This document shows, piece after piece, positions 1,532-20,141 of a stretch of DNA of 51,064 nt; position 1 is the stretch's first letter, and each line of letters opens with the position of its first letter. The notes below the pieces were generated by a model. It saw nothing but the letters and a program-made list of their open reading frames with translations, was not told the DNA's origin and searched no databases. The position numbers and the translations under genes were made by a program. Source of the stretch: a virus (lineage: Duplodnaviria; Heunggongvirae; Uroviricota; Caudoviricetes); the IMG/VR virus record IMGVR_UViG_2534681675_000014, one strand, 5' to 3'.

Positions 1532-1741
1532 TTAATTTGAATACAATGCAATTCTCGAGGACTGAAGTTTCTCGCAATTAAAATTTATCAGTTTTACTTT
1601 CTGCTCTCTGGAAACGCCTGCTTCTTTTTTACCTGAGAGCATTTTTTCGCATTCTGATTTCGTTAGTTTAGATTTTGAATATCTTGTCCAGTTAGTAGGA
1701 GTGCCACCTTCCTTTTCAATAGTGGCGGTAATTTTATACAT
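1532..1741 (-). CDS. Small protein, YdaC-like (69 aa)
   Basis: ORF 1532..1813; ATG at 1741 preceded by GGAGGTG Shine-Dalgarno; this start overlaps the ralR stop by 8 nt. Confidence 0.5.
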   Translation of the reverse strand: MYKITATIEKEGGTPTNWTRYSKSKLTKSECEKMLSGKKEAGVSREQKVKLINFNCEKLQSSRIALYSN

Positions 1742-1984: not shown

Positions 1985-2794
1985 TTATTCCTCTGAATTA
2001 TCGATTACACTGTATTCCCCGGTTAATACAGAGGAATCTGCAGGATCGATTGTCAGTGGTTCCTTTTCATCCATTGATACTGCACGCTGGATCTCAATTG
2101 ATACGGGCAGATATTTGAACAGGCGACGAATAGCCGTTTTCTTTGCCATTTCTTCCCAGTGAGTTACCCACGGCCCGTTATTACCAGCTTTACTCAGGCT
2201 GCGCACCAGCTCAATCTGTTTGCGCGTCATAACTTCAAACTGAGTACCTCCGTCTTTAAGTCTTGCGACAGCATAGACGTGGGTAACCGGGGCATCTTCG
2301 TTTTCTCCCGGGCGGTGTATTAACTTTTCATCAAGGCCAAATTCGAAGCTAAACTCGTCACCTTCACGGACAACACGGGCTGACAGGCTGGCGATTTGAC
2401 CAGAACGGCGAGCCAGATCAATCATGCCGCGATAGCCAATGATTAGCTGAACGTTCTTTTTACCGCTCTTTTCGTTTTTATTACCAAAAGGCAGTAAATA
2501 TGCATGACCGAGGGCGCTACCTGGCTCAAGTCCGAGCTGTGAACACTGTACGATCGCACTGACAAAACTCATAGTGTCACAGTTTCCTAACGCCGGAACT
2601 TTACGAATTTCTGTGGTGGCGATACGGATCATACGTTCAGCCGTCATATGGCGTGGAAGAGCTGCTGCCAGTTGCTCTTTCATTGATGGCTGGTTAATAA
2701 AACTAATCACGTCGCTATTTTTAACTGCTGCTGGTGCACGGTTTCCCTGAGTTTTTTGCAGATCGGCTTTTGCGATTGGTGGTTGCTTAGTCAT
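1985..2794 (-). CDS. recT: RecT single-strand annealing recombinase
   Basis: 269-aa product from internal Met [13 protein letters not shown]... recalled as RecT; start overlaps recE stop by 8 nt. Confidence 0.9.
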
Positions 2795-5387
2795 TTGCAT
2801 ATTCCTTAGCCCTGCGGGGCAGTGATAATGTCTTAATAGCTGGCCATTCATCGGTATTCAGGCAGTCAGACAGGGTTCGCAGATTGCGGTGATATTCCTG
2901 TTGACCTGCCAGTTTTGCTTCTTCGCCCATCATGAAAATTTCAACCGGATAACGTCCGCACTCAATAGTTGTGCTGGCAACCAGAAAAACGAAAGTTGGC
3001 TGCACTCCAAACTGTGCTTCATAACCGTCACTGTAGAATGCATCCTGAACGTGATAGCGGTAGTCGTAATAAGCGGTTTTGAATCGTTGAATATCCGCCG
3101 TAGTTTTCACGTCCATGATCCAGTGAAATTCAGGGATAATTTTGTCCGGACGGCACCGACACAAAATTCCTGTTTCAGGATCTTCCCAGTAAATTGATGA
3201 TTCAGCGTGTCCGGCGCTTTCAACAAGCCATTGCCCCAGCGGCAAAGCCATAACGCTTTGATACATGAGTTCAATTTTCCGGCCTTCTTCCGCAGTGATA
3301 ACTGTTTTTCCTGTGCTTGCGCATTCCATCAGAAACGCTTTCTCTTCTTCTTTTCCGGCGTTTGTACGGCGGTTAAATTCAGGTGCTACGATAAAGCGGT
3401 TACTGAATTCTTCCGGTTCAAGTACCCGGCAGTGGAAAGCGGTTCCTAAATCGAGCGTTTTTGTCTTTGTGGTGTCCACGGGGGCATTTTTACGCCACAA
3501 ATATAGTGCCGGAGTATCAGCAATGTCATCGAGCTGAGACTTACTGACACCGGGACCCGCGTGGTAATTCTCATTCGAAATTCCGTAATAAATACCTGGC
3601 TCTATGTCTTCTACGATTACGGGATCTGCGACTTCGCCAGTTTCATCACTGCAATCGCGATGCGGATCGCTGCCAGCATTCTCATTGTGCGGATGTTCAG
3701 CGCCTTCCATTTCCTCCGGATCATTTTCCTTAGCTTCAACCTGACTCTCTTCATCGAATGTTTCCTGGTATGTTGCGTCGCCCATCACCGCACCACAGTC
3801 AGGGCAGTTATCCCCGCCAGTCTGGCCGCAGGCATTGCAGGCTATTTCCGGTTCCTGTTGCACTACTGGCTCAGGTTGATTCATATCCGGGCTGGTTTTT
3901 TCCGTTTCTGGCTGGTTCTGGTACACACAATTGCGAGTCTGGATCCCCTTTACCCATTTCGGATCGTTCGGGTCGCTAATTCCGTCAACAAATTCACCAC
4001 GTGATGCAGCAAGCAATTTATCGGCATCGACAGGATCTTTTGATGGAATGTTTTTCCGGGCTTCATGGAGTTCTGCCCGCAGTTCCTGATATTTCGCATC
4101 AACAGAATTTACCTGTGACTGAGCATCCAGCGGCTGCGTGTCCTGATGATGTTCAGTTGCGTCCGGTTCCATTGTTTCAGCCTCTCCCTGTTCAACTGCC
4201 GTTGTTCCAGATGGTTGCGGTTTTTCTTCATCATCCTGTTTTCCTTCTTCTGTTACTCGCTGCGGCATCGGGGCAGAGGAGCGACCGCAGGCAATATCCA
4301 CGATTTCCGGATCAGGGTTGGCATGATCGGTTTCAGTCAGTACTTTGTTCAGATATTCAGTGACGTGCGCGGGGATGACCTCGATCCCAATTGGTGCTTC
4401 TTTTACGGACGCAACCACGATGGCGCGGGAATAATCCAGCCCGCCAGGCATGGTGATGAATTTGTCGCGGAAAACAGAAAAGGGCGGTTTATTTTCAGCG
4501 ATAATTTCCTCAATGCGTTTAGCGTGTGCCGGATGAAGGTTATAGATGTCCAGATCCATTGAACGGGCCAGTACGCCAGTGGCTACGTCGCGCGCCAGTG
4601 ACGTCAGATCGTGTACGAAACCTTCGCCGCGATCGGTGAGGTTTCCGCCGCCAGCATTAGCACCGGAAGCCGTGCGAGTGATGTGTGAAACACGATTACC
4701 CTTCATCCACTCTTTTGTCAGCAGTCCTCGATCGGTGTAGTCAGCGTTCAGGTATGCTTCGAAAAAAGCAGTTATCAGTCCCAGGTTTGAATTACCAGGA
4801 TTAGGGAAAACTTTGTCAGTGTCACGAACCAGTTTGTGGAGTTCGCGAATTTCCAGCGGGTCGAGCAGGCTGGTTTTGTGGGAAACAGCCAGGGCAGTAA
4901 CAGCCGGTAGTTCTTCAGCCCGAGCAATGTGTAATGCCTGGAGTCCTTCGCGTGAAACGTGCGTTACCGGTTTTTCGCTGCCGTGTTGAGCAAGCCAACG
5001 AATGGGCAGTTCCTGGCCAGAAATTGGGAGTAGCATATTCTCCTCAATCTCAGTCATGTCTTCGCCGTTGACGTTGGTATTGCCTTGATAGTGAGCGTTG
5101 TCTGGTGCTGCTCCCGGTTTTAGTTCCCATGTCATGGAGTCTTTGCTGAGTTGATAGCGTTCACTCCAGGTAAAATCGATCTCACCTTCAGCGGGCAGGT
5201 CATTAACGACAGGAAAATTCGTGGCAACAGCTTTAAAATAGCTGCTCAGTTTTTTACCTGACTTAACGATCAGGTAGTCCAGAGTGGCACTGGTCGATTC
5301 AAAATCGTTGCTTGCCCACAGGACGACGTCAGGTTCACCGGATGATTTTTTCGCTTTCCGTAACAGGAAGAGTGGTTTTGTGCTCAT
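2787..5387 (-). CDS. recE: RecE exonuclease VIII
   Basis: 866-aa ORF, sequence recalled as Rac RecE; recE-recT order. Confidence 0.9.
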
Positions 5388-7742: not shown

Positions 7743-8381
7743 TTAAATATCTTGTTGAATTTTAAAGCATACGCCCAATATGCAAGATAGATCATCCAGC
7801 ATAATTGAAGGGTAGCGAGGATTCGTGGGGACTAAAAGAATATCCGGCCCTTCTATCTCCAGTTTACGAATGACAGGTGTTGTGGTCCCTTTGGGTAAGG
7901 CAAGGACAATATTTCCTGGTTGTACGGTTCGATCGGGATCAACAAAAACTGTTGAACCATTTGGGATGGAAACTCCCCCACCAGATGTTGACATACTGTC
8001 ACTCTCTAGAACAACTGCAAAGGTATTGGCCGGGATTTCTCCGACAAGCTGCACACAAGAGGTTATTGAGGAATTTTTCATATAATCACTCCAGCTTGCT
8101 GCCTGCTGAAGTGATAGTAGCGGAACCGTTTTTATCGGCGGTAAAGATAGATCAAGCGAATCACCTGTATTTAACTCTCCTCCATTAAGAAGCCAATTTT
8201 CGTTTACTTTCAATATCTTTGCCAGTGAACTTATGTAACGCGAGGACGGCGCTCCTCCACCGTTCATCCATTGACTTACGGAGCCTTTTGATGCGCCAGT
8301 GGCATTGACAAGGTCTTTGCCTTTCAGGTTTAGCGCATGCATACGTTGGGTTATGCGTTCAGATATTGTTTGCTTGCTCAT
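7743..8381 (-). CDS. CI-type prophage repressor (N-terminal HTH, C-terminal LexA/S24-like autopeptidase)
   Basis: 212 aa; N-terminus SERITQRMHALNLKGKDLVNATGASKGSVSQW is HTH-like; C-terminal half S24-peptidase-like; divergent from cro-like gene; ATG directly abuts operator repeats. Confidence 0.75.
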   Translation of the reverse strand: MSKQTISERITQRMHALNLKGKDLVNATGASKGSVSQWMNGGGAPSSRYISSLAKILKVNENWLLNGGELNTGDSLDLSLPPIKTVPLLSLQQAASWSDYMKNSSITSCVQLVGEIPANTFAVVLESDSMSTSGGGVSIPNGSTVFVDPDRTVQPGNIVLALPKGTTTPVIRKLEIEGPDILLVPTNPRYPSIMLDDLSCILGVCFKIQQDI

Positions 8382-8472
8382 GTTTTGATTTTAAAACACA
8401 GATGGTTTTGTTTCTTGACTTTCTTTGGTTTTGATTATTAAACTTTTGGCGTTCAGTTTTATGGAGCGACTC
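8382..8472. promoter_or_regulatory. Divergent immunity promoter/operator region (OR-like)
   Basis: 91-bp gap between divergent repressor and cro-like genes; three direct GTTTTGWTT repeats at 8382, 8405, 8428 (23-bp period); TTGACT -35-like hexamer at 8415..8420. Confidence 0.5.
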
Positions 8473-8715
8473 ATGAAAAAATCAGAAGTATTAGGCTATT
8501 TTGGCGGAGTTGTTAAAACAGCCGCAGCTCTAGGAACGTCAAAAACCACAGTCAGCATGTGGGGGGAAGAGGTTCCGTGGAAATGGGCGTTGCTAATTCA
8601 GGCAGTCACTGCCGGGGCGCTCAAATATGAGTTACACATACCGACGGTTGTCATTCCTGGTTCTGATCATAATCCGCCTTCTAACCAAGGGGGGATTCAT
8701 GAAAATCAAGCATGA
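8473..8715 (+). CDS. Cro-like HTH regulator (YdaS-like)
   Basis: 80 aa from ATG 8473 (GGAG 6 nt upstream); HTH-like VKTAAALGTSKTTVSMW; divergent from repressor. Confidence 0.65.
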   Translation: MKKSEVLGYFGGVVKTAAALGTSKTTVSMWGEEVPWKWALLIQAVTAGALKYELHIPTVVIPGSDHNPPSNQGGIHENQA

Positions 8716-9124
8716 ACACATCCGCATGGCGATGAATGCCTGGGCGCGTCCTGATGGCGAAAAAGTTCCAGCAGCTGGAATAACCCAGGCTTATTTTGAG
8801 TTGGGTATGACGTTTCCTGAACTGTATGACGACAGCCATCCGGAAGCCCTGGCTCGCAATACCCAGAAAATTTTCCGCTGGGTAGAGAAAGACACCCCTG
8901 ATGCAGTTGAAAAAATTCAGGCGTTGTTACCAGCGATCGAAAAGGCAATGCCACCTTTGCTGGTGGCCAGAATGCGCAGCCACAGTTCAGCTTATTTTCG
9001 GGAGCTGGTGGAGACGCGGGAGCGATTGGTGAGAGACGCTGATGATTTTGTCGCAGTGGCAATCGCCGGTTTCAATCAGATGAACCGTGGTGGCCCGGCA
9101 GGAAATGCTGTGGCAGTACATTGA
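8699..9124 (+). CDS. YdaT-like protein (141 aa)
   Basis: ATG 8699 with AAGGGGGG Shine-Dalgarno; starts MKIKHEHI as recalled for Rac YdaT; overlaps cro-like gene by 17 nt. Confidence 0.6.
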   Translation: MKIKHEHIRMAMNAWARPDGEKVPAAGITQAYFELGMTFPELYDDSHPEALARNTQKIFRWVEKDTPDAVEKIQALLPAIEKAMPPLLVARMRSHSSAYFRELVETRERLVRDADDFVAVAIAGFNQMNRGGPAGNAVAVH

Positions 9125-9195
9125 CTGACAATAGCCATATCGAATCGCTTCCGGCAACTCGTGAGTAAAAAGATTCGGTATCAGAAGAGGTGAGT

Positions 9196-10278
9196 ATGGC
9201 TAACGCCTGGCTCAGATTATGGCATGACATGCCAAATGACCCTAAGTGGCGAACAATTGCCAGGGTGTCAGGGCAGCCAATTGCAACAGTGATGGCAGTG
9301 TATATCCACCTCCTGGTGAGCGCGTCACGAAATGTCACGCGAGGTCACATTGATATCACGACAGAAGATTTGGCAAGTGCGCTCGACGTGACAGAAGAGG
9401 TAATTGATTCAATTTTGCAGACGATGCAGGGGCGGGTACTTGATGGTGATTTAATCACTGGATGGGAAAAACGCCAGGTGCTTAAAGAGGACAACGGCAA
9501 TATTTCGCAAACCGCAAAATCTCCTGCAGAGCGCAAGAGGGCGCAGCGAGAGAGGGAAAGAAAGCGGGAACAAAATGGCGATTGTCACGGCGCGTCACGA
9601 AATGTCACGCACATGTCACGACGAGTCACGACAGATAAAGATACAGATAAAGATACAGATAAAGATACAGATCAAGAAGATCAAAATACTATGGTCCATG
9701 GCGTAAAAAACGCCACGAACCAGGCAGGGGATGTTCAGACCGTCAATCCTGGTCAGCCAGCAGGCACGACACCGGAAGCCGATTCAGCGTATGCGCTGAA
9801 AGCCGATTCGGGCGCTGTGCAGCAGGTGATGACCGCAAGGCCGGAGCAATCACACCAACTGCAGCAGCCTGAAGCCGATTCCGCCATTCAGCGGGAAGCC
9901 GATCGGGTAGTCCCGGAAAACACCGGGCAGTCTGTGGGACGAGTGGATTATCCGGATGTGTTCGAACAGGTCTGGCGGGAGTACCCGTTGCGTGCCGGGG
10001 CAAACCCGAAGAAATCCGCTTTCAGTGCCTGGAAGGCCAGATTACGTGAGGGGGTGCCACCAGAGGCCATGCTGGATGGCGTTAGGCGTTACGCAAGATA
10101 CCTGGCGGCTACCGGGAAAACGGGAACGGAATTTGTTCAGCGAGCGACGACGTTTTTTGGACCGGACCGGAATTTTGAGAACCCCTGGTTGCTCCCGGTA
10201 AGCGGCACGAACAACCAGCGTTGTGTGAATCATATTTCTGAACCGGATACCGAAATTCCGCCTGGCTTCAGGGGGTAA
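9196..10278 (+). CDS. Putative replication initiator (O-like), iteron-containing
   Basis: 360 aa from ATG 9196; position after the immunity switch; internal GTCACG iterons and DKDT-repeat linker; acidic/basic linker then C-terminal domain. Confidence 0.55.
   Translation: MANAWLRLWHDMPNDPKWRTIARVSGQPIATVMAVYIHLLVSASRNVTRGHIDITTEDLASALDVTEEVIDSILQTMQGRVLDGDLITGWEKRQVLKEDNGNISQTAKSPAERKRAQRERERKREQNGDCHGASRNVTHMSRRVTTDKDTDKDTDKDTDQEDQNTMVHGVKNATNQAGDVQTVNPGQPAGTTPEADSAYALKADSGAVQQVMTARPEQSHQLQQPEADSAIQREADRVVPENTGQSVGRVDYPDVFEQVWREYPLRAGANPKKSAFSAWKARLREGVPPEAMLDGVRRYARYLAATGKTGTEFVQRATTFFGPDRNFENPWLLPVSGTNNQRCVNHISEPDTEIPPGFRG
9321..9364. repeat. Iteron-like cluster 1 (GTCACG-type hexamers at about 10-bp phasing)
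   Basis: Hexamers at 9324, 9334, 9344, 9355; 20-mer cgcgtcacgaaatgtcacgc (9321..9340) repeated exactly at 9591..9610. Confidence 0.5.
9583..9670. repeat. Iteron-like cluster 2 plus three 12-bp tandem repeats (candidate origin core)
   Basis: GTCACG at 9584, 9594, 9604, 9615, 9625, then ataaagatacag x3 (9635..9670); inside the replication gene. Confidence 0.5.
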
Positions 10279-10318
10279 GTGCTGATTTCAGGTCATGAGG
10301 TAATTTTCAGGAGGACTT

Positions 10319-10723
10319 GTGGCAAAAGTTTTTACACAAGAAGAGCGAGAAAAAATTAAAGGGCAGGTTGTTGAACTCGTACGCCAGAGTGGGCGCGAGA
10401 CGTTACGACAACTGGAAGCTAAAACCGGGGCAACAAGATATCTGATGAGCGTTCTGGCCAGAGAGCTGGTTGCCAGTGGCGATGTATACAACTCTGGCTA
10501 CGGGTTATTCCCGTCAGAACAGGCTCGTAAGGACTGGCAAAATGCCCGCAAAAAACTCTCGAGGGCAAAGGTGAAGAAACCATCTGTGGTTGATCCGGAC
10601 CTTATCTGGTCATTACCTGACGGAGAAATACGTCGCTACGACAGGCGTCAGAACATGATTTGCCGTGAGTGCCGGGAAAGCAAAGGTATGCAGCGTATAC
10701 TAACGTTCTATTGGGGAATATAG
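10319..10723 (+). CDS. Hypothetical protein (134 aa)
   Basis: GTG start 4 nt after CAGGAGG Shine-Dalgarno; follows replication gene on same strand. Confidence 0.45.
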   Translation: MAKVFTQEEREKIKGQVVELVRQSGRETLRQLEAKTGATRYLMSVLARELVASGDVYNSGYGLFPSEQARKDWQNARKKLSRAKVKKPSVVDPDLIWSLPDGEIRRYDRRQNMICRECRESKGMQRILTFYWGI

Positions 10724-10738
10724 CCACTAAATAAGGTA

Positions 10739-11050
10739 ATGAACCAAATGAACACGGAAAAAGCGAAAACGCAGCTCAGGATAATGCTTGCCGGTCCGGC
10801 TGCGAGTTATGCGACACATTCACCAGCCATAAAAAAGGTTCTTGATGAACTGGAAGCCAAAGACAAGCGCATTGCAGAACTGGAGGCAAGGGAAGTCCAG
10901 CTACCGGCTGGCTATGAACTTCGATATGGACACCCGATAAATGCTGATGAGCGCCATGTCATGATACCTAAGGAAAATGGCAGCTGGATTTATCTGGCTG
11001 ATTTAGAGCGCGCACTACGTGTTGCTGGCATTCGCATCAAAGGAGAGTGA
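10739..11050 (+). CDS. Hypothetical protein (103 aa)
   Basis: ATG start; tightly packed in the replication/nin block. Confidence 0.45.
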   Translation: MNQMNTEKAKTQLRIMLAGPAASYATHSPAIKKVLDELEAKDKRIAELEAREVQLPAGYELRYGHPINADERHVMIPKENGSWIYLADLERALRVAGIRIKGE

Positions 11051-11051
11051 C

Positions 11052-11408
11052 GTGGAAATAAAACCAGAAGATGAGTTAAGTAATATTGTTTTATTTCCGG
11101 TAAAAGAAGATGATCCACGTAATCAGGTTAATTTTCTTTATGAGCCATCGGAAAGACCATATTGCCATCACGCTTCTGTCCGGGTTGATGAAAAAGAGCG
11201 TCAGGTCCGCTGTAAAATCTGCGGTGCAGTTGTGGAGCCGTTTGACTGGATGCTCTCTGTGGCGAAAAGAGAAAACAGACTGGCAGATAATGTAAGGCTA
11301 TTGCGTCAGGAGGAACGGGAAAGGCGGAAAAATATAGAAAAGCTAATTCAGATTGAGCGTAACGCAAAAGCGCGGATACGCAGAGCGACAAAATCCAGAA
11401 CTGAATAA
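11052..11408 (+). CDS. Hypothetical Cys/His-containing protein (118 aa)
   Basis: GTG 11052 with GGAG 6 nt upstream, 1 nt after previous stop; CHH...CKIC motif suggests a zinc ribbon; ORF track gives a longer 11019 start. Confidence 0.45.
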   Translation: MEIKPEDELSNIVLFPVKEDDPRNQVNFLYEPSERPYCHHASVRVDEKERQVRCKICGAVVEPFDWMLSVAKRENRLADNVRLLRQEERERRKNIEKLIQIERNAKARIRRATKSRTE

Positions 11409-11505
11409 TTAAATTTAGCACTGTTAAAAATTTAATCCTTAACCGGAGGGATTTCTGCACCCTCAGAACATCAGGAGGCCGCCTGAAAGGGCGGTGGAGA
11501 TAATA

Positions 11506-12027
11506 ATGGGAATAACTAAAGAACGATTGTTGGAAATAGCAAACCTTAGTGATTGGGCATTAAGTGATGAGAGAATTATTTCTCCTCATGCTTATGAGTC
11601 AGTTACAAGTATAGAAATAACAACAATGGCTAGAATGCTGCTTGGTTATTTCAAAATAGAAAATAAAAAACAGATGGATAGTAATGTTGATATATGTGAG
11701 ATTTTAGACGATTGGGGGGCTTGGGTTGTGGCTGGTAATAGTTCTATTGATTGGCAGGAAATAGCTGATAAATATAAAAATGTTGTTCCTCATGGTAAAA
11801 AATCACGTCGTCAGTGCAGCAATGATGAAGGGCGAGTTATTGACATTAGTATCCTTAGGTTAGAAAGATATAAGCAACAAGAATATGAGTTAATTGTTGC
11901 TCATTTTGTGATTGGTTTATCTCTTCGTGCTATTGCAAAGCAACAAGGATGTTCAGATGGAACAATTCGTAAAAGATTGCAAAAAGCCTTAGGTTTTTTG
12001 ACTGGATATATAGCAATTACCAGTTAA
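11506..12027 (+). CDS. Q-family antiterminator-like protein (QuuD/933W-Q-like), paralog 1
   Basis: 173 aa from ATG 11506 (GGTGGAG SD); motifs DDWGAWVV, KSRRQCSNDEG, LIVAHFVIGLSLRAIAKQQGCSDGTIRKRLQKA align with recalled DLP12 QuuD sequence. Confidence 0.6.
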   Translation: MGITKERLLEIANLSDWALSDERIISPHAYESVTSIEITTMARMLLGYFKIENKKQMDSNVDICEILDDWGAWVVAGNSSIDWQEIADKYKNVVPHGKKSRRQCSNDEGRVIDISILRLERYKQQEYELIVAHFVIGLSLRAIAKQQGCSDGTIRKRLQKALGFLTGYIAITS

Positions 12028-12665
12028 GAGTCAGCGGGTTTTTTACCAGTGTAATGGTATAAGGATACTCCCATGTGTCTTACATGATATGGAAGCGCTG
12101 TTGCTGGATGCTTTGTGATACTCTTAAAGCGGAGGGGAGAGCCTTCCGCTTCAATTTCTGCGTCCGAAACGGTCGTAGAGAAAAATTCTTTCCATTCATT
12201 GAATTTTACTGCTGATTTGTCAGACTTTATATAAATTAGAATTCCTCCATGATCGTCACGTGACGTACCCGTGCCGTAACGTTCGGTTAGCTGAATCCAG
12301 CCATTATGAATAGATTTGGGGCCTCTCCATAATTTTGCTTCACCGATCCATTCGAATTTTCCGAATTGATGTTTAACTAATAAATCAACGTGACCGCCAT
12401 GTTGAGTATCATGTTCAACATCATAAAACCTACCTTTCAGGAAATTTTTGATCGACGCTGTTAGCTCGTCCTCTCCCCACTTAGCATCTTGATAGAAGTG
12501 TTTGTCATTTTCTAAATTCTGAATAGCGTCGTCTAAATCTTCATAGAGTTGCTTTACAAAAATATTTTTGTCTGCAGCTAATTTTCTTTGAACCATTCCC
12601 CTAAATTCAGGATCCATTCTAATTAATGATTGAAGGTCTGCAGTACAGATGTTTACATCACTCAT
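12024..12665 (-). CDS. Hypothetical protein with PD-(D/E)xK-like nuclease motif (213 aa), operon gene 3
   Basis: ATG 12665 with GGAGAG SD; motif GHVDLLV...FEWIGEAK; stop overlaps the Q-paralog-1 stop; AT-rich. Confidence 0.55.
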   Translation of the reverse strand: MSDVNICTADLQSLIRMDPEFRGMVQRKLAADKNIFVKQLYEDLDDAIQNLENDKHFYQDAKWGEDELTASIKNFLKGRFYDVEHDTQHGGHVDLLVKHQFGKFEWIGEAKLWRGPKSIHNGWIQLTERYGTGTSRDDHGGILIYIKSDKSAVKFNEWKEFFSTTVSDAEIEAEGSPLRFKSITKHPATALPYHVRHMGVSLYHYTGKKPADS

Positions 12666-13086
12666 GCAGACTCTCCAAAAGACTCGAAGGAGTAAAGTAT
12701 GGATAAAGATACTGGCTAAAATTATCAACCAATTCGCCAGTTTCTGGATGGTAAAAACTTCCTGTGTCTAAAGCATAGGAAATAAGATCATCTTCAACTG
12801 GTATTGGTTCTTCCGTTAAATTATCAATGTATTGAAAATGCATATCCAATAGATGTGCTTTATAGCTAGATAAATAATCAGTTGCTTTTATTAGCAGGAT
12901 ATAGTCATCTTTCGTATCAGTTAGATAGGTCAAACCATTGATAAGGGTTTTGTATGTAAAGTGATTGATATTTTTAGCATCTTTACTAACCAGAAAAAGA
13001 AAAAGATCACGACACACACTGCGAACAGGATCATTAAAATCCTGCTCTATTTGCGTGATAATGTCGTGATATATACTCTTTTTCAT
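12658..13086 (-). CDS. Hypothetical acidic protein (142 aa), operon gene 2
   Basis: ATG overlaps upstream gene stop (ATGA at 13083..13086); stop 2 nt before gene 3 start; AT-rich. Confidence 0.5.
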   Translation of the reverse strand: MKKSIYHDIITQIEQDFNDPVRSVCRDLFLFLVSKDAKNINHFTYKTLINGLTYLTDTKDDYILLIKATDYLSSYKAHLLDMHFQYIDNLTEEPIPVEDDLISYALDTGSFYHPETGELVDNFSQYLYPYFTPSSLLESLHE

Positions 13087-14174
13087 TTATGGCCTGATGA
13101 TCTCGCTCTTCTTTTCTCTTCACAGGACTTAACAGAATCCAATATTTTTTCAACAATAAATATAATCGAATCAATGTTGTTACAGTTCTTCGCAATTGCC
13201 TCATGCAACCTAATTCTAGGATTATCAAGCATTGTCCTTTTCCCTGGTAATATTAACTCTACTGATAAAATATGTGAAGAACTTTGTGGTAAATCCCAAA
13301 TTTTTCCCAACTTAAACTTTGTCAATATTGGGCTTGCGGACTCTCCACTATGATGGTAAACATCTTGACGCAAACACTTTTGACTTGGTTTGAGTTTTAA
13401 AGAACTTGTATTGCCATCTGAGGTGATAAAAGATACATGAGAAATTCTGCCATCTACTTTCTCGTAAAGATCTTGTATTGAACCAAATAATTCAAGAGGA
13501 TTGTTTAAAATAACGCCAGCTTCTTTTTTTATAAAATTAGCCACAAGGTATTGTTGAGGCTGTGATTCACTTCTTGGAAGGATAGATAAATCAATCGTAA
13601 GAATTAATATTTTTTCTGCAGGCATTAGCATGATGGTATTAAAGCATTGCGTGACTTGGCGTGTTTTGCATTTTATTTCTCCACCATTAGCACGTAATTC
13701 CATACCCGCATCGCTAAGATGTGTTGGGTCAAGCTCTATCACTTCAGTGTAATACGCTTTGGATAAAAAAACAGCAGTGTCAATTTGTTTATCACGAATG
13801 ATATCTTGACGTAGTTCAGCAAAATGCAGCTCAGTATCAGCAACTAACAGCTCCTCTCTGGATAAAGGAGTTGGGTATTTTTCTGAGAAGGGGCTATTGT
13901 CCTTTTTCTGATTTGTGAAAATTGTTTGTAATTTTGCTACGTCTTCATCGGTGATTCTATAAATAGAAAGTAATCGATTCCCGCTAAAAATTAAACCTTT
14001 CCAGAAATCGTCGATTCTGTCTTTTAGGTCGGGATTATGCTGAACTACACTATTTACACGTTCAATAAAAAGGGGTAATCCTTGGGCCGTTACACCCAGT
14101 GATGAACCAAGAAGCTTACGGGTGTTGCGCCAGCCAAAGCGTGAATTGATGTTTTTTACTGTTTGCTCAAGCAT
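13083..14174 (-). CDS. Hypothetical protein (363 aa), operon gene 1
   Basis: ATG 14174 preceded by AAGGAAG SD (ORF track alternative GTG at 14180); AT-rich; no family recognised. Confidence 0.55.
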   Translation of the reverse strand: MLEQTVKNINSRFGWRNTRKLLGSSLGVTAQGLPLFIERVNSVVQHNPDLKDRIDDFWKGLIFSGNRLLSIYRITDEDVAKLQTIFTNQKKDNSPFSEKYPTPLSREELLVADTELHFAELRQDIIRDKQIDTAVFLSKAYYTEVIELDPTHLSDAGMELRANGGEIKCKTRQVTQCFNTIMLMPAEKILILTIDLSILPRSESQPQQYLVANFIKKEAGVILNNPLELFGSIQDLYEKVDGRISHVSFITSDGNTSSLKLKPSQKCLRQDVYHHSGESASPILTKFKLGKIWDLPQSSSHILSVELILPGKRTMLDNPRIRLHEAIAKNCNNIDSIIFIVEKILDSVKSCEEKRRARSSGHK

Positions 14175-14462
14175 TAACACTTCCTTAATTTTCCCTTAAC
14201 AATTTAGGGTGCTAAACTTTTTTGCGCAGTTTACACAAAAAAATAGTGCGTACGCAAAAACTATCTAACATGATGAGCTTTAACCGGGAAACTTGTATAT
14301 GTTGTGAGCATAAAGTTGGCTGAGAAATCTAAAACGGGTAGAATGACTGCGGGTGCTTGAGGCTATCTGCCTCGGGCATGAACACCAAAGGCAGATAGAG
14401 AAAAGCCCCAGTTAACATTACGCGTCCTGCAAGACGCTTAACATTAATCTGAGGCCAATTTC

Positions 14463-14675
14463 ATGCTTTGCACAAGTAGGTTAGCCTCTTACGTGCCGAA
14501 AGGCAAGGAGAAGCAGGCTATGAAGCAGCAAAAGGCGATGTTAATCGCCATGATCGTCATCTGTTTAACCGTCATAGTGACGGCACTGGTAACGAGGAAA
14601 GACCTCTGCGAGGTGCGAATCCGAACCGGCCAGACGGAGGTCGCTGTCTTCGTAGACTACGAATCTAGAGAGTAA
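14463..14675 (+). CDS. Mok-like in-frame leader reading frame of the hok locus (70 aa)
   Basis: In-frame N-terminal extension of the Hok-like toxin, as in mok/hok loci. Confidence 0.5.
   Translation: MLCTSRLASYVPKGKEKQAMKQQKAMLIAMIVICLTVIVTALVTRKDLCEVRIRTGQTEVAVFVDYESRE
14520..14675 (+). CDS. hok: Hok/Gef-family type I toxin (51 aa)
   Basis: MKQQKAMLIAMIVICLTVIVTALVTRKDLCEVRIRTGQTEVAVF recalled as Hok family; AAGGAG SD; stable hairpin downstream (14681..14707). Confidence 0.8.
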   Translation: MKQQKAMLIAMIVICLTVIVTALVTRKDLCEVRIRTGQTEVAVFVDYESRE

Positions 14676-15144
14676 GAGTGACCAGGCGGGAGAGTAATCT
14701 CCCCGCCACCTCTGATGTGTCAGGCATCCTCAACGCACCCGCACTTAACCAGCTTTGGCGGGTATATTTTATCTGTGAATATTTTTATAAAAATAATGCC
14801 CACGCACAGCATAAAACAAAAAGTATTACAGATAAAAAAGGAACGTAATGTGCAGATTTGTTGTTTTCCATATTTACTCACCTTAATATGATTAACCCTG
14901 ATAGGGTTGTTATTTCAGCGGTTTTCAAATGAGATATTATGGTGATCTGACAAATTTGCATAACATTAAAATTTAATTTGTTTAACCGCTTTTAATAATA
15001 AGCGTTGTTTGTATCCCAGCAATCTGTTGTTTGGTTTTTATTCCATTAAGGTGGGGGCTTTACACTGGAGCCAGTTTATTTATACTTCATACGTCAGCCT
15101 GAACAACTGGCATCTGCTGCGCTGCGCCATCGAGAGATTGAGAA

Positions 15145-15744
15145 ATGGCGCATATACAACTGGTCAAACAAACCTCTTCCGGATTACTTCTCCCGGCGAC
15201 GCCGGAGAGTTGTGATTTTCTGCATCAAATCAAAATAGGCGAGTGGATACACGCAGACTTTAAGCGTGTGCGTAACTACGCATTCCACAAGCGTTTTTTC
15301 AAACTCCTGCAACTGGGATTCGATTACTGGACTCCGGTCGGTGGGGCGATCACGCCTCGCGAACGAAAACTGCTGTCTGGTTTCGTTGATTACCTGTGCG
15401 AATCAGTTGGTCGGGAACACACGCCAGCCCTGAGTGATGCCGCAGAGCAATATCTGAATACAGTTGCGACACGCAGAACCCGGGATACGGCATTGTTAAA
15501 GTCGTTTGAGGCTTTTCGCGAGTGGGTAACCATTCAGGCTGGATTTTACACCGAACATTTTTATCCGGACGGTAGCCATGGGCGTCGGGCGAAATCCATC
15601 GCTTTTGCGAATATGGACGAAACCGAGTTTCAGCAGGTTTATAAATCTGTTCTGAATGTGCTGTGGAACTGGATTCTGTTCCGTAAATTTTCCTCTCCGG
15701 AACAAGTCGAAAATGTGGCCGCGCAGCTGCTGGAGTTTGCGTAA
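15145..15744 (+). CDS. Conserved lambdoid nin-region protein (YbcN/DUF1367-like, unverified)
   Basis: 199 aa; coupled (TAATG) to the ybcO-like gene downstream; position upstream of Q. Confidence 0.45.
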   Translation: MAHIQLVKQTSSGLLLPATPESCDFLHQIKIGEWIHADFKRVRNYAFHKRFFKLLQLGFDYWTPVGGAITPRERKLLSGFVDYLCESVGREHTPALSDAAEQYLNTVATRRTRDTALLKSFEAFREWVTIQAGFYTEHFYPDGSHGRRAKSIAFANMDETEFQQVYKSVLNVLWNWILFRKFSSPEQVENVAAQLLEFA

Positions 15745-16034
15745 TGGTGGATTTACGTAAAGCGGCGCGGGGGCAGATGTGCACCGTCAGAATTCCTGGC
15801 TACTGCAATCACGATCCGGAAACGTCTGTGCTGGCGCATTACCGACTGGCGGGAACGTGCGGAATAACGACAAAACCACACGATATGCAGGCGGCGATTG
15901 CCTGTAGCTCATGCCACGATCTAATCGACGGGCGGGTAAAAACCAGCGATTACACCAAAGAAGAATTACGCCTGATGCATGCAGAAGGTGTTTTTCGCAC
16001 ACAAGAAATCTGGAGAAAGGAGGGATATTTGTGA
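15744..16034 (+). CDS. YbcO-like Cys/His-rich nin-region protein (putative nuclease)
   Basis: 96 aa; Cys/His pattern CTVRIPGYCNH...CSSCHD; length and position match DLP12 YbcO as recalled. Confidence 0.6.
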   Translation: MVDLRKAARGQMCTVRIPGYCNHDPETSVLAHYRLAGTCGITTKPHDMQAAIACSSCHDLIDGRVKTSDYTKEELRLMHAEGVFRTQEIWRKEGYL

Positions 16035-16573
16035 TTTACCCAACGAATACAGGAAAAAGCGGAGAACACCTTCGTCTCGCCACGCTGGAAAGTGTCTGGA
16101 TTCAGGGCAAACTGCGTATGTGGGGGCGCTGGTCGTATATTGGCGGTGGCAGGTCAGGAAATATGTTCAATCAGTTGTTGGCATCCCAAAAATTGACGAA
16201 AACAGCCATCAATGAAGCCCTGCGCAGAATGAAAAAAGCGGGAATAGAGAAAGCTGAGCTGGAAGCGTTTTTGAGAGAGATGATCAACGGCAAGCAAAAG
16301 AGCTGGCTGGCGCATTGTACTGATGCAGAGGCGTTATGTATTGATCGAGTCATAAGTGAGGTGCTGGCAGAGCATCCAGGATTGATTTGCATTCTCCGGC
16401 AACGCTATGAAGGGCGGGGGATGACTAAGCGTAAAATGGCTGAATTGCTACATGATGCACACCCAGAGTGGTGTTTTAGCACATGCGAAAAACGGATTGC
16501 TAATTGGTTAGCTGTTGCTGAGTATGTCCTATATATTCCCATGCGTGAATCATTTGCTGAGAAAATGGCTTGA
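16031..16573 (+). CDS. Q-family late-gene antiterminator, paralog 2 (likely the functional late activator)
   Basis: GTG 16031 overlapping upstream stop (GTGA), AGGAGGG SD; WGRW motif and Q-like C-terminus; followed by a strong terminator about 85 bp downstream. Confidence 0.55.
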   Translation: MIYPTNTGKSGEHLRLATLESVWIQGKLRMWGRWSYIGGGRSGNMFNQLLASQKLTKTAINEALRRMKKAGIEKAELEAFLREMINGKQKSWLAHCTDAEALCIDRVISEVLAEHPGLICILRQRYEGRGMTKRKMAELLHDAHPEWCFSTCEKRIANWLAVAEYVLYIPMRESFAEKMA

Positions 16574-16656
16574 TTTCTTACGTATAAACTGCTTCAATTT
16601 CGCTATGCTTCGCAAAGCTGTATCGCGAGGCGAACAATCCCACGGATACAAAAAAA

Positions 16657-16677
16657 CCACCTAAAGGTGGTTTTTTT
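16657..16677 (+). terminator. Rho-independent terminator (tR-prime-like) downstream of Q paralog 2
   Basis: ccacc-taaa-ggtgg stem-loop followed by T7. Confidence 0.6.
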
Positions 16678-16952
16678 GTATCTGTAAGAAATGAGATATT
16701 AGTGTTGATATATTGTTGTTGTTTTGATGCATATTTCTATGCCTAAATAATGTGATGTAGATCACTTATATTATTAATGCTGTATTTTAATCTATTAAGG
16801 ATCTTGAGGTGTTCCCCAGGGCGGGGGTGGCAAGGTATAACTGTTTAGCGGGAGGGAAGCCACAGTGTATTAGTCAGGAGCTGATATACTTCGGGAGGCA
16901 CCCGACGCCTCAGATCATAATAATAATGACCTCTTTAGCTAACCATCTTTTT

Positions 16953-16976
16953 ACCGCCTTGACGGGCGGTTTTTTG
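16953..16976 (+). terminator. Rho-independent terminator
   Basis: accgcc-ttgacg-ggcggt hairpin followed by TTTTT. Confidence 0.5.
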
Positions 16977-17098
16977 TTTATATAGAAAGTATTTGGCAGG
17001 GATTTTAGGCTAAAAATCACCACGTAGTCTTAATTCAGGACTGAGGAGACGTTGATGTTGGTGAGATGATGCAGCACGGCTTCTGGCATAATTTCAGG

Positions 17099-17126
17099 CA
17101 AAAAAAACGGCCCGTGAAAGAGCCGT
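17099..17126 (-). terminator. Minus-strand terminator-like hairpin 1
   Basis: acggc/gccgt stem; A-run on plus strand equals T-run after the hairpin on minus strand. Confidence 0.4.
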
Positions 17127-17256
17127 AAAATCTAATGCATTTCAAAATTCGCCTCCAGAAAAACTCTTATATCTTTAGGTGTCATGATTTGTTTTTCCTT
17201 GACCTTAGTCAATATTACTATGTCATTATTAATGGTTGATTGTTTTTCATCCAGAT

Positions 17257-17278
17257 AAAAAAGCCCTCTTGCGAGGGC
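17257..17278 (-). terminator. Minus-strand terminator-like hairpin 2
   Basis: gccctc-ttgc-gagggc with A6 on plus strand (T6 on minus). Confidence 0.45.
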
Positions 17279-17405: not shown

Positions 17406-17432
17406 AAAAAAAGCGACCCGTTAAAGAGTCGC
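17406..17432 (-). terminator. Minus-strand terminator-like hairpin 3
   Basis: gcgac-ccgttaaaga-gtcgc with A7 on plus strand; loop resembles hairpin 1. Confidence 0.4.
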
Positions 17433-17545
17433 TTGTGAATAAAGGAAGTATATAAGTAACCGCGTACGTTATTAATTCTATTGCTCTATGCCTGTGACGG
17501 ATATTGATTTTGGTCAATTCATCTGTAATGAGTGGTTATTTACGA

Positions 17546-17572
17546 TAAAAAATAGCTCCCCGGAAGAGGAGC
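17546..17572 (-). terminator. Minus-strand terminator-like hairpin 4
   Basis: gctcc/ggagc stem with A-run on plus strand. Confidence 0.35.
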
Positions 17573-17822
17573 CCGTGAAAATTCATGGTGAGAAGAACAA
17601 GGATTTACAAAAGATTCCGACAGACAAAGAATCGTAGGTATTTTATGAGGCGATATTGGTTTTGTGGTGATTTATATCAATATCTTGATGGTTTCTTGAA
17701 TGCTTGATGGCTAATTATAATTATGCATATTAAATGATTATTATTGTTTTCATATAGAAATAAGTAGCATCCTTGATATAGTAACAGCACAACTCGAATT
17801 TTCTTTCACTGGGAGACTATTT

Positions 17823-18080
17823 ATGCACTCACACCATCATCAAATATCTATGAGCCAACTTACCATGAGTTCACCCATTAAAGGTTTTTCACTGTATGTA
17901 GAAAGCGAAGACGTGGCTGTCGCGATAGCTGAACTTGAAAAGGCCTTATCACAGCTCAGGAACGGAGATAAGGCATTCAAAGAAAGTGGTACGCTGGTTG
18001 GTAACGTCAGAGCAAGTTATTGCTATCCTTACCGCCCCCATTGTGTCGCGAAAGGTCTTTATTGGGATGAAGGGGATTAA
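17823..18080 (+). CDS. Hypothetical protein (85 aa)
   Basis: ATG with GGGAGA SD; convergent with the 170-aa gene and overlapping its stop. Confidence 0.4.
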   Translation: MHSHHHQISMSQLTMSSPIKGFSLYVESEDVAVAIAELEKALSQLRNGDKAFKESGTLVGNVRASYCYPYRPHCVAKGLYWDEGD

Positions 18081-18589
18081 GCAAGGACTTGTTCACCGAT
18101 AGTTACTGGTAGCGGACAAATGTATTCCCAGACTGGATCAGGGTTAAAGGTTTTACCTGCCCAGTAAAGTTCCATTCTGTAGGTGAATTCCAGTACTGAT
18201 GTATCATTTCTTAATAATGACATATCTCCGCGATGATAACTATCTGTTTGTATTATGAAGATTTTATCAGATGGTTTCCCGTCTGTAAGTCGAAAATGTT
18301 TAGCCTCCTCCAGGTTACCCCATGCGAAGAGTGACGTATAGCGAGAAGGTTTTTGCGGGTAAACTCCTCTTCGGTAAAACTCTAACCCCCAGTCGATGAA
18401 TTCGTTTTTATTATAAATTTTTGCCGCATTGTTAATAAGGTATCCCTCGCCATGTGGTGCAAGCCCGCACGGAAAAAGTTTGTCTACCAGAGATGACATT
18501 TCGACAGGACTTATATCGGAGAATCGCTTTGGTGTAACAATATCGCCAGTTGAGTATATTCCTCGGCGATCAACCAAAAATAGTTCCAT
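18077..18589 (-). CDS. Hypothetical protein (170 aa), cargo gene in the Q-to-lysis region
   Basis: ATG with GGAGAAA SD; minus strand, opposite to late transcription; AT-rich. Confidence 0.5.
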   Translation of the reverse strand: MELFLVDRRGIYSTGDIVTPKRFSDISPVEMSSLVDKLFPCGLAPHGEGYLINNAAKIYNKNEFIDWGLEFYRRGVYPQKPSRYTSLFAWGNLEEAKHFRLTDGKPSDKIFIIQTDSYHRGDMSLLRNDTSVLEFTYRMELYWAGKTFNPDPVWEYICPLPVTIGEQVLA

Positions 18590-18782: not shown

Positions 18783-19688
18783 CTATATTTCCAGACATCT
18801 GTTATCACTTAACCCATTACAAGCCCGCTGCCGCAGATATTCCCGTGGCGAGCGATAACCCAGCGCACTATGCGGATGCCATTCGTTATAATGCTCGAAC
18901 GCCTCTGCAAGGTTCTTTGCTGCCGTTAACCCGTCTGGTTTGGGCATGATACTGATGTAGTCACGCTTTATCGTTTTCACGAAGCTCTCTGCTATTCCGT
19001 TACTCTCCGGACTCCGCACCGCCGTGTTCTTCGGTTCAAGTCCCAACATCCGGGCGAACTGGCGTGTTTCATTAGCCCGGTAGCATGAACCATTATCCGT
19101 CAGCCACTCCACTGGAGACGACGGAAGATCGTTGCCGAAGCGGCGTTCCACCGCTCCCAGCATGACGTCCTGTACTGTTTCACTGTTGAAGCCGCCAGTA
19201 GTCACCGCCCAGTGCAGTGCCTCACGATCACAGCAGTCCAGCGCGAACGTGACACGCAGTCTCTCTCCGTTATCACAGCAGAACTCGAACCCGTCAGAGC
19301 ACCATCGCTGATTGCTTTCTTTCACGGCCACTCTGCCTGTATGTGCCCGTTTCGATGGCGGTACAGCAGGTTTTCGCTCAAGCAACAGCGCATTCTGGCG
19401 CATGATCCGGTAAACACGTTTGGCATTGATCGCAGGCATACCATCAAGTTCTGCCTGTCTGCGAAGCAGCGCCCATACCCGACGATAACCATACGTGGGC
19501 AGCTCTCCGATAACATGGTGTATACGGAGAAGCACATCCGTATCATCAGTGTGACGACTGCGGCGGCCATCCATCCAGTCATCGGTTCGTCTGAGAATGA
19601 CGTGCAACTGCGCACGCGACACCCGGAGACAACGGCTGACTAAGCTTACTCCCCATCCCCGGGCAATAAGGGCGCGTGCGCTATCCAC
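18783..19688 (-). CDS. insD: IS2 transposase OrfB (InsD)
   Basis: 301 aa, recalled as IS2 InsD. Confidence 0.9.
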
Positions 19689-20011
19689 TTTTTTGCCCGT
19701 CCATATTCAACGGCTTCTTTGAGGAGTTCATTTTCCATCGTTTTCTTGCCGAGCAGGCGCTGGAGTTCTTTAATCTGCTTCATGGCGGCAGCAAGTTCAG
19801 AGGCAGGAACAACCTGTTCTCCGGCGGCGACAGCAGTAAGACTTCCTTCCTGGTATTGCTTACGCCAGAGAAATAACTGGCTGGCTGCTACACCATGTTG
19901 CCGGGCAACGAGGGAGACCGTCATCCCCGGTTCAAAGCTCTGCTGAACAATTGCGATCTTTTCCTGTGTGGTACGCCGTCTGCGTTTCTCCGGCCCTAAG
20001 ACATCAATCAT
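19646..20011 (-). CDS. insC: IS2 OrfA (InsC)
   Basis: 121 aa from [18 protein letters not shown]...; overlaps insD as expected for the InsCD frameshift fusion. Confidence 0.85.
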
Positions 20012-20141
20012 CTGTTCTCCAATGACTAGTCTAAAAACTAGTATTAAGACTATCACTTATTTAAGTGATACTGGTTGTCTGGAGATTCAGGGGGCCAGTC
20101 TACCTACGTTTAGCACCATCCGAATTCTCGGAGGTGAGGCT

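Follow-up and report, generated by a model that had tools for sequence, protein, structure and literature searches.

Why would a lambdoid prophage carry two genes for Q-type antiterminators, with a block of genes reading in the opposite direction between them? The question is raised by the IMG/VR virus record IMGVR_UViG_2534681675_000014, a 51,064-nt stretch of DNA (hereafter the window, meaning the whole stretch that was analyzed) that is a Rac-like lambdoid prophage with structural genes out to 50 kb. Its two Q-type genes, here called Q1 and Q2, flank a cargo of three reverse-strand genes, a hok/sok module, and genes of the nin region (Table 1). An earlier note on this DNA, the original prediction, took the two genes for paralogs and suggested that a crossover in the Q genes of two lambdoid phages had brought in the antisense operon, hok, and the nin genes, with one Q possibly left as an orphan. 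We favor a different reading, in which a cassette of a Q gene, reverse-strand cargo, and the Q target site was transplanted into the early region of a Rac-like prophage that has its own late activator, Q2. With the working proposed for it below included, we regard this as moderately probable.

Q1 and Q2 Belong to Known Q Families

Both open reading frames (ORFs) are present where the original prediction had placed them, and the hidden Markov model search that it called for assigned each protein to a Q-type family. By profile match, Q1 is clearly a Q21-family protein. It scores 109.4 bits against PF06530 (Phage_antitermQ; cut-off 26) across residues 62–171 and 3.9e-34 against phrog_79 ("Q-like"), is 35% identical to DLP12 QuuD across 108 residues, and has the three motifs that had been picked out by eye (WGAW at residues 70–73, KSRRQC at 99–104, and the C-terminal CSDGTIRKRLQKA at 149–161). 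The Q protein of phage 21 was its sole significant match among solved structures (PDB), in a colinear alignment (E 8e-4 with the single sequence, E 2.7e-5 with the family profile), and the Q1 C-terminus is a sigma-region-4-like helix-turn-helix. Ahead of the Q domain (residues ~62–171), residues 1–63 form an N-terminal module, phrog_3323, which is also the opening part of an unrelated 187-amino-acid (aa) gene that an O157 prophage carries at this position.

Q2, judged by its profiles, is a DUF1133 protein (QuuQ-like) and a remote member of the Q21 family. It matches PF06576 (DUF1133) from residue 1 with 354 bits and phrog_753 ("Q-like") at 3.3e-78, reaches PF06530 marginally (26.5 bits against the cut-off of 26), and belongs to a family whose profile matched phage 21 Q alone among the solved structures in PDB (E 1e-5). 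Between Q1 and Q2 themselves BLASTP returned nothing, and hhalign of the family profiles gave 29% probability (E 6e-4). By these comparisons there is no recognizable paralogy, and "paralog" overstates the relation; because the two genes have no usable similarity, recombination between them is not the mechanism that brought the cargo.

Long-form and related loci were gathered by exact-protein look-ups and motif scans. Long-form homologues of Q1 (170–185 aa) occur in E. coli and Salmonella in a constant gene order: DUF977, Q1, two or three reverse-strand genes, hok, nin genes, a second Q, and the lysis genes. Their cargo is of three types (that of the window, NA37 with a 410–477 aa protein, and DUF6731 with a 159 aa protein), and their second Q comes from three families (DUF1133, the Q82-type PF06323, and the Q-lambda-type PF03589). 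Short-form homologues (113–120 aa) are ~60% identical to Q1 residues 60–173. Each is the sole Q of its prophage, encoded after RusA, DUF968, or DnaB and before the lysis genes (L015–L024; related loci are cited by their L numbers).

A 12-bp Element Accompanies the Q1 Family

Has Q1 been cut off from its target? The orphan status proposed for it does not stand up: an element specific to its family, GCGTACGCAAAA, is retained 2.2 kb downstream of Q1, just past the cargo. The core of this 12-bp element is palindromic. Among the first 24 loci fetched by Q or DNA similarity, 23/23 loci with a Q1-family gene had exactly one exact copy, in Q orientation and immediately beyond the cargo, and the element was missing from the one locus without Q1 (L004, Rac-SA53). 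As a reverse test, viral contigs were scanned for two 14-mers containing GCGTACGCAAAA. A Q1-family gene was present in 117 of the 219 motif-bearing stretches, and the element lay downstream of it on the same strand in 117/117, at distances from 42 bp to 3.6 kb. Where a stretch extended at least 4 kb upstream, the gene was found in 62/66 cases for ACGCGTACGCAAAA and in 15/47 for GTGCGTACGCAAAA; the Q-less stretches are contigs of varied composition, as expected of chance matches in a very large collection. Furthermore, the element is conserved at 12/12 positions in four long-form lineages whose neighboring 30–100 bp have diverged beyond alignment.

The sequence context of the element resembles a late promoter. 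Anchored on it, 81 non-redundant loci with a single Q gene (one-Q loci) share the consensus ta.aAAAa.acTAAC, then GCGTACGCAAAA, then A.TaT.gTAatcTGtTAAGAGTgGTtaCTtcG. A rightward TAnnnT begins 17–21 bp from the first base of the element in 81/81 of them (background 0.10), followed by TGnTAAGAG in 72/81, so that the typical one-Q site runs from GCGTACGCAAAA to a −10 about 19 bp on, a pause-like TGTTAAGAGTGG, and usually an intrinsic terminator ~60 nt downstream. As a predicted promoter, this site has the grammar of the Q-dependent late promoter described for phage 21, whose spacer contains the Q-binding element and is followed by a pause element resembling a −10 (PMC6606751; structures 6P18 and 6JNX). 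Q1 is likely to bind its 12-bp element.

In the window, the predicted rightward −10 stands in register with the element, in agreement with the DLP12 promoter TTTACG-16-TATGCT. On the other strand, a leftward TAnnnT lies 16–19 bp to the left of TTGCGT in 63/81 one-Q loci, whatever their cargo, and the window has the same pair, with part of the 12-bp element, read in reverse complement, supplying the predicted cargo-promoter −35, TTGCGT. We predict that TTGCGT and TAnnnT form a resident leftward promoter driving the insert. The predicted rightward start sits ~70 nt 5' of the hok mRNA start; a transcript from there would have a 5'-extended hok leader, which might alter hok folding and translation.

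A Slot for Reverse-Strand Cargo Lies between Q and Its Putative Site

How general is the separation of a Q gene from its site by other genes? All 141 related loci have the element 3' of a Q1-type gene and in its orientation. In six of them the element overlaps the end of the Q ORF, so the slot is empty there, and a cargo of 610–3565 bp occupies the other 135. This cargo forms 42 sequence clusters and is reverse-strand-dominated in 131 loci, forward-dominated in 0. In short-form loci the reverse-strand genes follow within 9–14 bp of Q and the lysis genes come only after those; inserts begin 9–14 bp past the Q stop (L015, L019, and L023) and end ~55–150 bp short of the element. The one-Q group is a large set of enterobacterial lambdoid prophages in which a short Q is split from its own predicted late promoter by 0.6–3.6 kb of accessory genes. 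A repeated junction sequence for site-specific insertion was sought; the candidate, GTTAAGAGT at the Q1 stop (12023), has a pause-like resemblance and is not in the left junctions of other loci, and we put it down to coincidence.

Which genes use the slot? Ten cargo clusters were sampled against PADLOC, and three match known or candidate systems: the Kiwa protein KwaB (498 bits), an NsnA/PD-T4-2_A-like protein with GmrSD_N, and PDC-S60 (337 bits). The L023 cargo also has a DNA methylase and an AAA_21 ATPase. No PADLOC match was found for the other seven sampled types (L028, L029, L031, L037, L048, L075, and L099), which makes the slot a ready source of candidate systems; these cargoes are candidates for new anti-phage systems. 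That of L075 encodes an NA37 nucleoid-associated-like protein, as do those of L003 and L005. With conserved flanks around many unrelated inserts, and known anti-phage systems among those inserts, the slot has two hallmarks of a prophage hotspot for defense cargo.

The three cargo genes of the window gave no strong match in PADLOC, Pfam, NCBIfam, or PDB, and fall in PHROGs of unknown function alone. The D...EAK motif of cargo gene 3 (start taken from the L001 annotation) suggests a PD-(D/E)xK nuclease, and its PADLOC match, to PDC-S54, is weak (E 0.002). All three are candidate anti-phage genes. Q1 runs head-on into them, as had been observed: its stop (12025–12027) and the convergent cargo gene stop (12024–12026) overlap within four bases, and no hairpin was found between the two stops. 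Q1 is as AT-rich as the cargo (GC content 0.34–0.36).

The Joints Define an Exchangeable Cassette

Comparison of the window with four related prophages placed module joints at 11389/11430, 14339/14347, 14741/14763, 15079/15080, and 16632/16633; a further one lies inside Q1. Up to ~11810, Q1 is 78–100% identical to alleles that go with other cargo (L003, L005, and L009); beyond this point identity falls to ~50–60%. The synonymous substitution rate (dS) likewise rises from 0.03–0.33 in the first 60 codons to > 1.5 past codon 109. This drop in identity and jump in dS indicate that the last third of the Q1 gene moves together with cargo and element. By its joints, the exchangeable unit runs from ~11820 to 14338 and comprises the Q1 3' third, the three cargo genes, and the element, inserted between a conserved Q1 5' part and hok. 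We consider it very probable that this segment is a cassette of the kind found in the one-Q prophages. Co-variation of helix-turn-helix specificity with cargo was considered and rejected, as the recognition stretch (C149, G152, R155, and K156 invariant; S150 and D151 nearly invariant) and the 12-bp element are constant across alleles.

What else does the slot hold? Some portion of 10700–17200 is matched in 4838/5426 complete E. coli genomes. The leader at the entry of the slot is found in 2604/5426 of these genomes and Q1 in 68/5426, which bears out the earlier view of Q1 as an imported extra. The leader precedes many different genes, with other first genes in L246 and L247, and small forward genes are among the slot occupants other than Q1. 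Because phrog_3323 also heads another slot gene and most genomes with the leader have no Q1, we read long-form Q1 as a likely in-frame fusion of a resident gene start with an imported short Q, which seems to have brought the cargo and the Q target site along.

Two Rac prophages illustrate the alternatives. In T-HYM1 (L245 4329–6487) the DUF977–hok slot holds a reverse-strand DUF4435 protein and an AAA ATPase, a pair that we take to be PARIS-like, with no Q1 and no 12-bp element. In Rac-SA53 (L004 6094–8660), IS1, a 192-aa forward gene, and a reverse "Beta protein" (PF14350, 179 bits) replace Q1 and the cargo, and a 75-bp leader is kept. The second leader hairpin, GCCGCCU-GAAA-GGGCGGU, has a GNRA-type loop and is boxB-like, and the leader may thus act at the slot entry as an RNA signal, nut-like or of another kind; the same hairpin (11478–11494) was rejected as a terminator, having no T run and an unexceptional fold (z = −1.3).

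The island is smaller than the original prediction had drawn it. The three reverse-strand genes and their surroundings do look island-like, AT-rich as they are, and that part of the claim stands; hok and the nin genes do not belong to it. By their distribution hok, DUF1367, and YbcO/DUF1364 are backbone outside the island. The hok/sok module is of type I toxin–antitoxin character in both RNA and peptide: sok (RF01794) scores 111 bits at 14351–14525 against a gathering score of 59 (Rfam), and the Hok peptide matches HOK_GEF with 78 bits (Pfam).

Q2 Is the Likely Late Activator

Which of the two proteins opens the late genes? Q1 does not stand directly before a late promoter and lysis genes; it lies ~8.1 kb, including the second Q, before the holin ORF at 19968. 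Q2 is the last nin-region gene and the Q closest to the lysis genes, is coupled to the nin genes through its start codon (Table 1), as had been noted, and is the sole Q in Rac prophages without Q1 (L004, Rac-SA53; L245, T-HYM1). About 60 bp 3' of its stop is co-inherited with it in E. coli and Salmonella. In this block we predict a promoter with −35 TTGATT (16570–16575), a 17-bp spacer with TTACGTATAAAC, TGcTTCAAT (16590–16598), and a −10-like TATGCT (16604–16609); at the same place L004 has TTGATT-17-TATCTT. We infer that 16570–16633 is the Q2 late promoter.

The strong terminator reported after Q2 is real and bidirectional, with an A/U-flanked extended stem at −29 kcal/mol (z = −9.5). It lies 85–105 bp past the Q2 stop, a position conserved in five other prophages; across the loci examined it is equidistant in every one, and at least four different hairpin sequences serve there, three other prophages having a different hairpin from that of the window. 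With the co-inherited block and this conserved terminator, Q2 is likely the late activator, in agreement with the original prediction. No experimental report of antitermination by a DUF1133 protein was found in the open-access literature.

The Q2 promoter spacer (16577–16589, TTACGTATAAAC; TTTACGCAAGAAAC in L004) and the Q1 element region (14248–14261, GTACGCAAAAAC) have the core TACGYA...AAAC in common, and the L004 spacer holds TTACG[T/C]A..AAAC, the core of the Q1 element. From this shared core, the two Qs may recognize related sites.

Several other features lie between Q2 and the lysis genes. A weak match to the small RNA family STnc100 (16775–16979; 26 bits against a gathering score of 47) ends at a second plus-strand terminator (16953–16976; −11.2 kcal/mol, z = −3.8). 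Downstream of the Q2 terminator, the minus strand has four strong terminator-like hairpins with T runs inside 470 bp (17107–17126, 17263–17278, 17411–17434, and 17554–17573) with no accompanying long ORF; these may mark small RNA or small peptide genes. Two convergent ORFs at 17823–18589, of 85 aa (plus) and 170 aa (minus), match no family; the Rac prophage of T-HYM1 has them too. IS3-family transposase ORFs on the minus strand (18783–20056; HTH_Tnp_1 at 19646–20056 and rve at 18783–19688) separate the holin gene from the Q2 promoter region, an insertion that may affect late transcription.

Proposed Working and Competing Explanations

How might two Q genes work in one prophage? Made after induction from the last position of the rightward early operon, Q1 would bind the element at 14248. 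Bound Q1 would boost rightward transcription that starts near 14278 and crosses hok, the nin genes, and Q2, or occlude the overlapping cargo promoter, or do both. Q2 would then act at 16570–16633, giving read-through of the 16657–16677 terminator into the lysis and structural genes. Whether Q1 itself still antiterminates in the window seems to us doubtful.

Several observations weigh against a transplanted cassette with a working Q1. In the window and the other long-form loci the pause-like TGTTAAGAGTGG has degenerated and there is no terminator within 100 nt, which makes a classical antitermination loading site doubtful; the hairpins at 14893–14909 and 14987–15004, between hok and DUF1367, were tried as terminators that Q1 might read through and are weak (−5 to −8 kcal/mol, z ~−1.2). 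The hok–nin–Q2 segment (14339–17200) is 98.4% identical in the T-HYM1 Rac prophage (L245) without Q1, so Q1 is dispensable in general for Q2 expression. Two of 32 long-form Q1 copies have their match split across reading frames (L173 9344–9863 and L223 9185–9702), by either frameshift or sequencing error. The ratio of nonsynonymous to synonymous substitution rates (dN/dS) is low, 0.18–0.38 pairwise among five Q1 alleles; this favors an active Q1 but may in part be inherited from selection in donor phages. Finally, the AlphaFold2 model of Q1 is poor (predicted local distance difference test 48 and predicted template modeling score 0.31, from a 46-sequence alignment), and the fold is thus unconfirmed.

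Most of these points would also fit if Q1 and its element were inert flanks carried along with the cargo, at most homology arms for cassette exchange: the missing pause-like element and terminator, the near-identical Rac prophage without Q1, the frameshifted copies, and a donor origin of the low dN/dS all find a place there. That the element is perfect in four lineages despite unalignable flanks argues otherwise, as do ORFs intact in 30/32 long-form loci, including the fused N-terminal module (dN/dS 0.26–0.56). Moreover, Q-type proteins can be toxic when over-expressed (PMC4825925), and a useless Q1 copy that was still expressed should therefore be lost. We consider inert carriage unlikely. 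Another possibility is that Q1 is kept for the sake of the cargo and not as an antiterminator, binding the element over the cargo −35 on induction and shutting the cargo off during prophage replication. The overlap of −35 and element, the leftward geometry shared by 63/81 loci of any cargo and by the window, and the decay of the antitermination parts in long-form loci that keep both core promoters and the element all point this way. Both promoters are predictions, however, and nothing points to the cargo harming its own phage; free Q proteins, as in lambda and phage 21, usually bind DNA weakly without a paused polymerase. We rate such a switch as quite unlikely.

Two further readings bear on history. 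Q1 might be the obligatory middle regulator of an ancestral, fixed two-step cascade in Rac-like phages, as N precedes Q in lambda. It is indeed the last gene of the early operon, and the two-Q layout, which under the original prediction should not be an ancestral module, is seen repeatedly in E. coli and Salmonella, where it combines three cargo types with a second Q of the DUF1133, Q82, or Q-lambda type. The recurrence is that of a minority state, however: most prophages with the leader and backbone have no Q1, and the slots of Rac-SA53 and T-HYM1 hold other occupants. These observations already contradict the word "fixed," and the cascade is highly improbable. The original history, with operon, hok, and nin genes arriving through a crossover in two phages' Q genes, has real features in its favor—Q1 is an extra, minority Q (68/5426), runs head-on into the cargo, and shares its low GC (0.34–0.36)—and one cassette joint does fall within a Q gene. 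That joint is between Q1-type alleles and not between Q1 and Q2, which have no usable similarity; hok and the nin genes occur without Q1, and the Q1 element is kept just beyond the cargo. Joints and retained element already contradict this history, and we give it hardly any credence.

The transplanted cassette beside a resident late activator remains the reading that we prefer, and it accounts for a two-Q prophage without a decaying orphan gene. A broader version would make a Q21-type Q with its own late promoter a general platform for expressing anti-phage cargo in lambdoid prophages of enterobacteria, in which a resident leftward promoter that shares the Q-binding element would keep the cargo on in the lysogen until Q switched or overran it, cargo and element would move with the 3' part of Q as one cassette, and grafting onto a resident gene of a Rac-like prophage would yield an N-extended Q ahead of the true late Q. 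This generalization is tentative and leans toward the improbable. In practical terms, a PF06530-type Q gene and GCGTACGCAAAA together provide a search key that delimits the accessory genes of such prophages. Should binding of Q control the cargo promoter as well, the arrangement would show how a prophage stops its own defense genes from disturbing the lytic cycle. The analysis also yields testable promoter and binding-site predictions for two unstudied Q subfamilies, the QuuD-like group and DUF1133.

Other Features of the Window

The coordinates of the features discussed, with those of the prophage backbone, are collected in Table 1. In the early region, 9190–10278 encodes a 362-aa protein with a DKDTDKDTDKDTD repeat and no Pfam match.

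Table 1. Annotated and predicted features of the window, in order of position
Feature	Position	Strand	Details
Integrase ORF	1–1236		
RalA/RalR	1557–1735		Rfam, 225 bits
Exonuclease ORF	2787–5387		recE-size
Repressor	7743–8381	−	
Early ORFs	8425–12027	+	Uninterrupted series; the rightward early operon ends with Q1
Leader	11430–11495	+	Conserved 66 bp at the entry of the variable slot; hairpins 11446–11464 and 11478–11494
Q1	11506–12027	+	Intact ORF, 173 aa; GGAG ribosome-binding site 11495–11498
Left cassette joint, inside Q1	11810–11830		KSRRQCSNDEG-coding core, the family's most conserved coding stretch
Cargo gene 3	12024–12617	−	197 aa, phrog_9664; D...EAK motif
Cargo gene 2	12658–13086	−	142 aa, phrog_11490
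Cargo gene 1	13083–14180	−	365 aa, phrog_12777
Predicted leftward cargo promoter	14228–14257	−	−35 TTGCGT 14252–14257; −10 TAAACT 14228–14233; 18-bp spacer
12-bp element GCGTACGCAAAA, putative Q-binding element	14248–14259	+	Single copy in the window
Predicted rightward −10 TAACAT	14266–14271	+	In register; predicted start ~14278
Right cassette joint	14339–14347		Coincides with the hok promoter −10; start of homology to L003 and L004, which have other cargo
hok/sok module, backbone	14351–14675	+	mok ORF start 14463; hok 14520–14675
DUF1367, nin-region backbone	15145–15744	+	With YbcO/DUF1364, comes after hok in Rac prophages whether or not they have Q1
YbcO/DUF1364, nin-region backbone	15744–16034	+	
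Q2	16031–16573	+	180 aa; GTG start overlaps YbcO stop (GTGA)
Q2 co-inherited block, read as late promoter	16570–16633	+	Homology with other prophages stops at 16632/16633
Bidirectional intrinsic terminator	16642–16685	+	Core 16657–16677, CCACC-TAAA-GGTGG and T run
Holin ORF, first lysis gene	starts 19968		Holin domain in the C-terminal half
DUF1327	20362		Between holin and lysozyme
Lysozyme	21050		After DUF1327

Relation to Known Systems

How does this locus compare with known Q systems? We found no description, in open-access full text, of the split between Q and its promoter, of recurrent reverse-strand cargo there, of a cassette that includes part of Q, or of two-Q prophages. The slot for anti-phage genes is apparently widespread and undescribed, and the split apparently has a classical but unremarked example in DLP12. 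There, reverse-strand nmpC lies between quuD and a site TTTACGTACGTAAAAAATTGGTTATGCTGTTAAGAGTGGTTAC with a terminator, just before essD; after nmpC come TTTACG-16-TATGCT, GTTAAGAGTGGTTAC, the terminator, and then essD. The split-Q layout is the same. DLP12 differs in having a variant element, ACGTACGTAAAA, and in that QuuD is short and the sole Q of that prophage.

Phage 21 Q belongs to PF06530, as does Q1, and also has a sigma region 4-like C-terminus; no other relative of either Q1 or Q2 among the PDB matches has a solved structure; the one-Q relatives of Q1 share the phage 21 promoter grammar. The phage 21 element, however, consists of two direct TGAGCA repeats, whereas here it is GCGTACGCAAAA with its palindromic core. 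Q1 further differs in its extra 60-residue N-terminal module, in its early-operon position 8 kb from the lysis genes, and in a site that has neither a pause-like element nor a nearby terminator in the window.

For Q2, the closest parallel is presumably QuuQ/YdfT of the Qin prophage, which we take to be of the same DUF1133 family, with a like gene order of hok, DUF1367, and Q. If Q1 is active, the window would have two serial antitermination steps toward the late genes, as in the N-then-Q relay of lambda. Lambda N works via RNA nut sites and is unrelated to Q, whereas the two factors of the window are both of the Q type and related prophages can do without the first. DUF1133 also appears among the Q antiterminators in a survey of Stx phages, where HHpred made the assignment (PMC8136144).

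The closest parallel for the cargo is with defense hotspots, in which conserved flanks surround many interchangeable anti-phage systems (a 2022 study cited in PMC11364771; PMC13586616). The slot described here is alike in its 42 cargo clusters, which include Kiwa KwaB, an NsnA/PD-T4-2_A-like protein, and PDC-S60. It differs in lying between a regulator gene and that regulator's own predicted target promoter, in holding cargo that is nearly always antisense to phage transcription, and in that part of the regulator gene is swapped along with the cargo.

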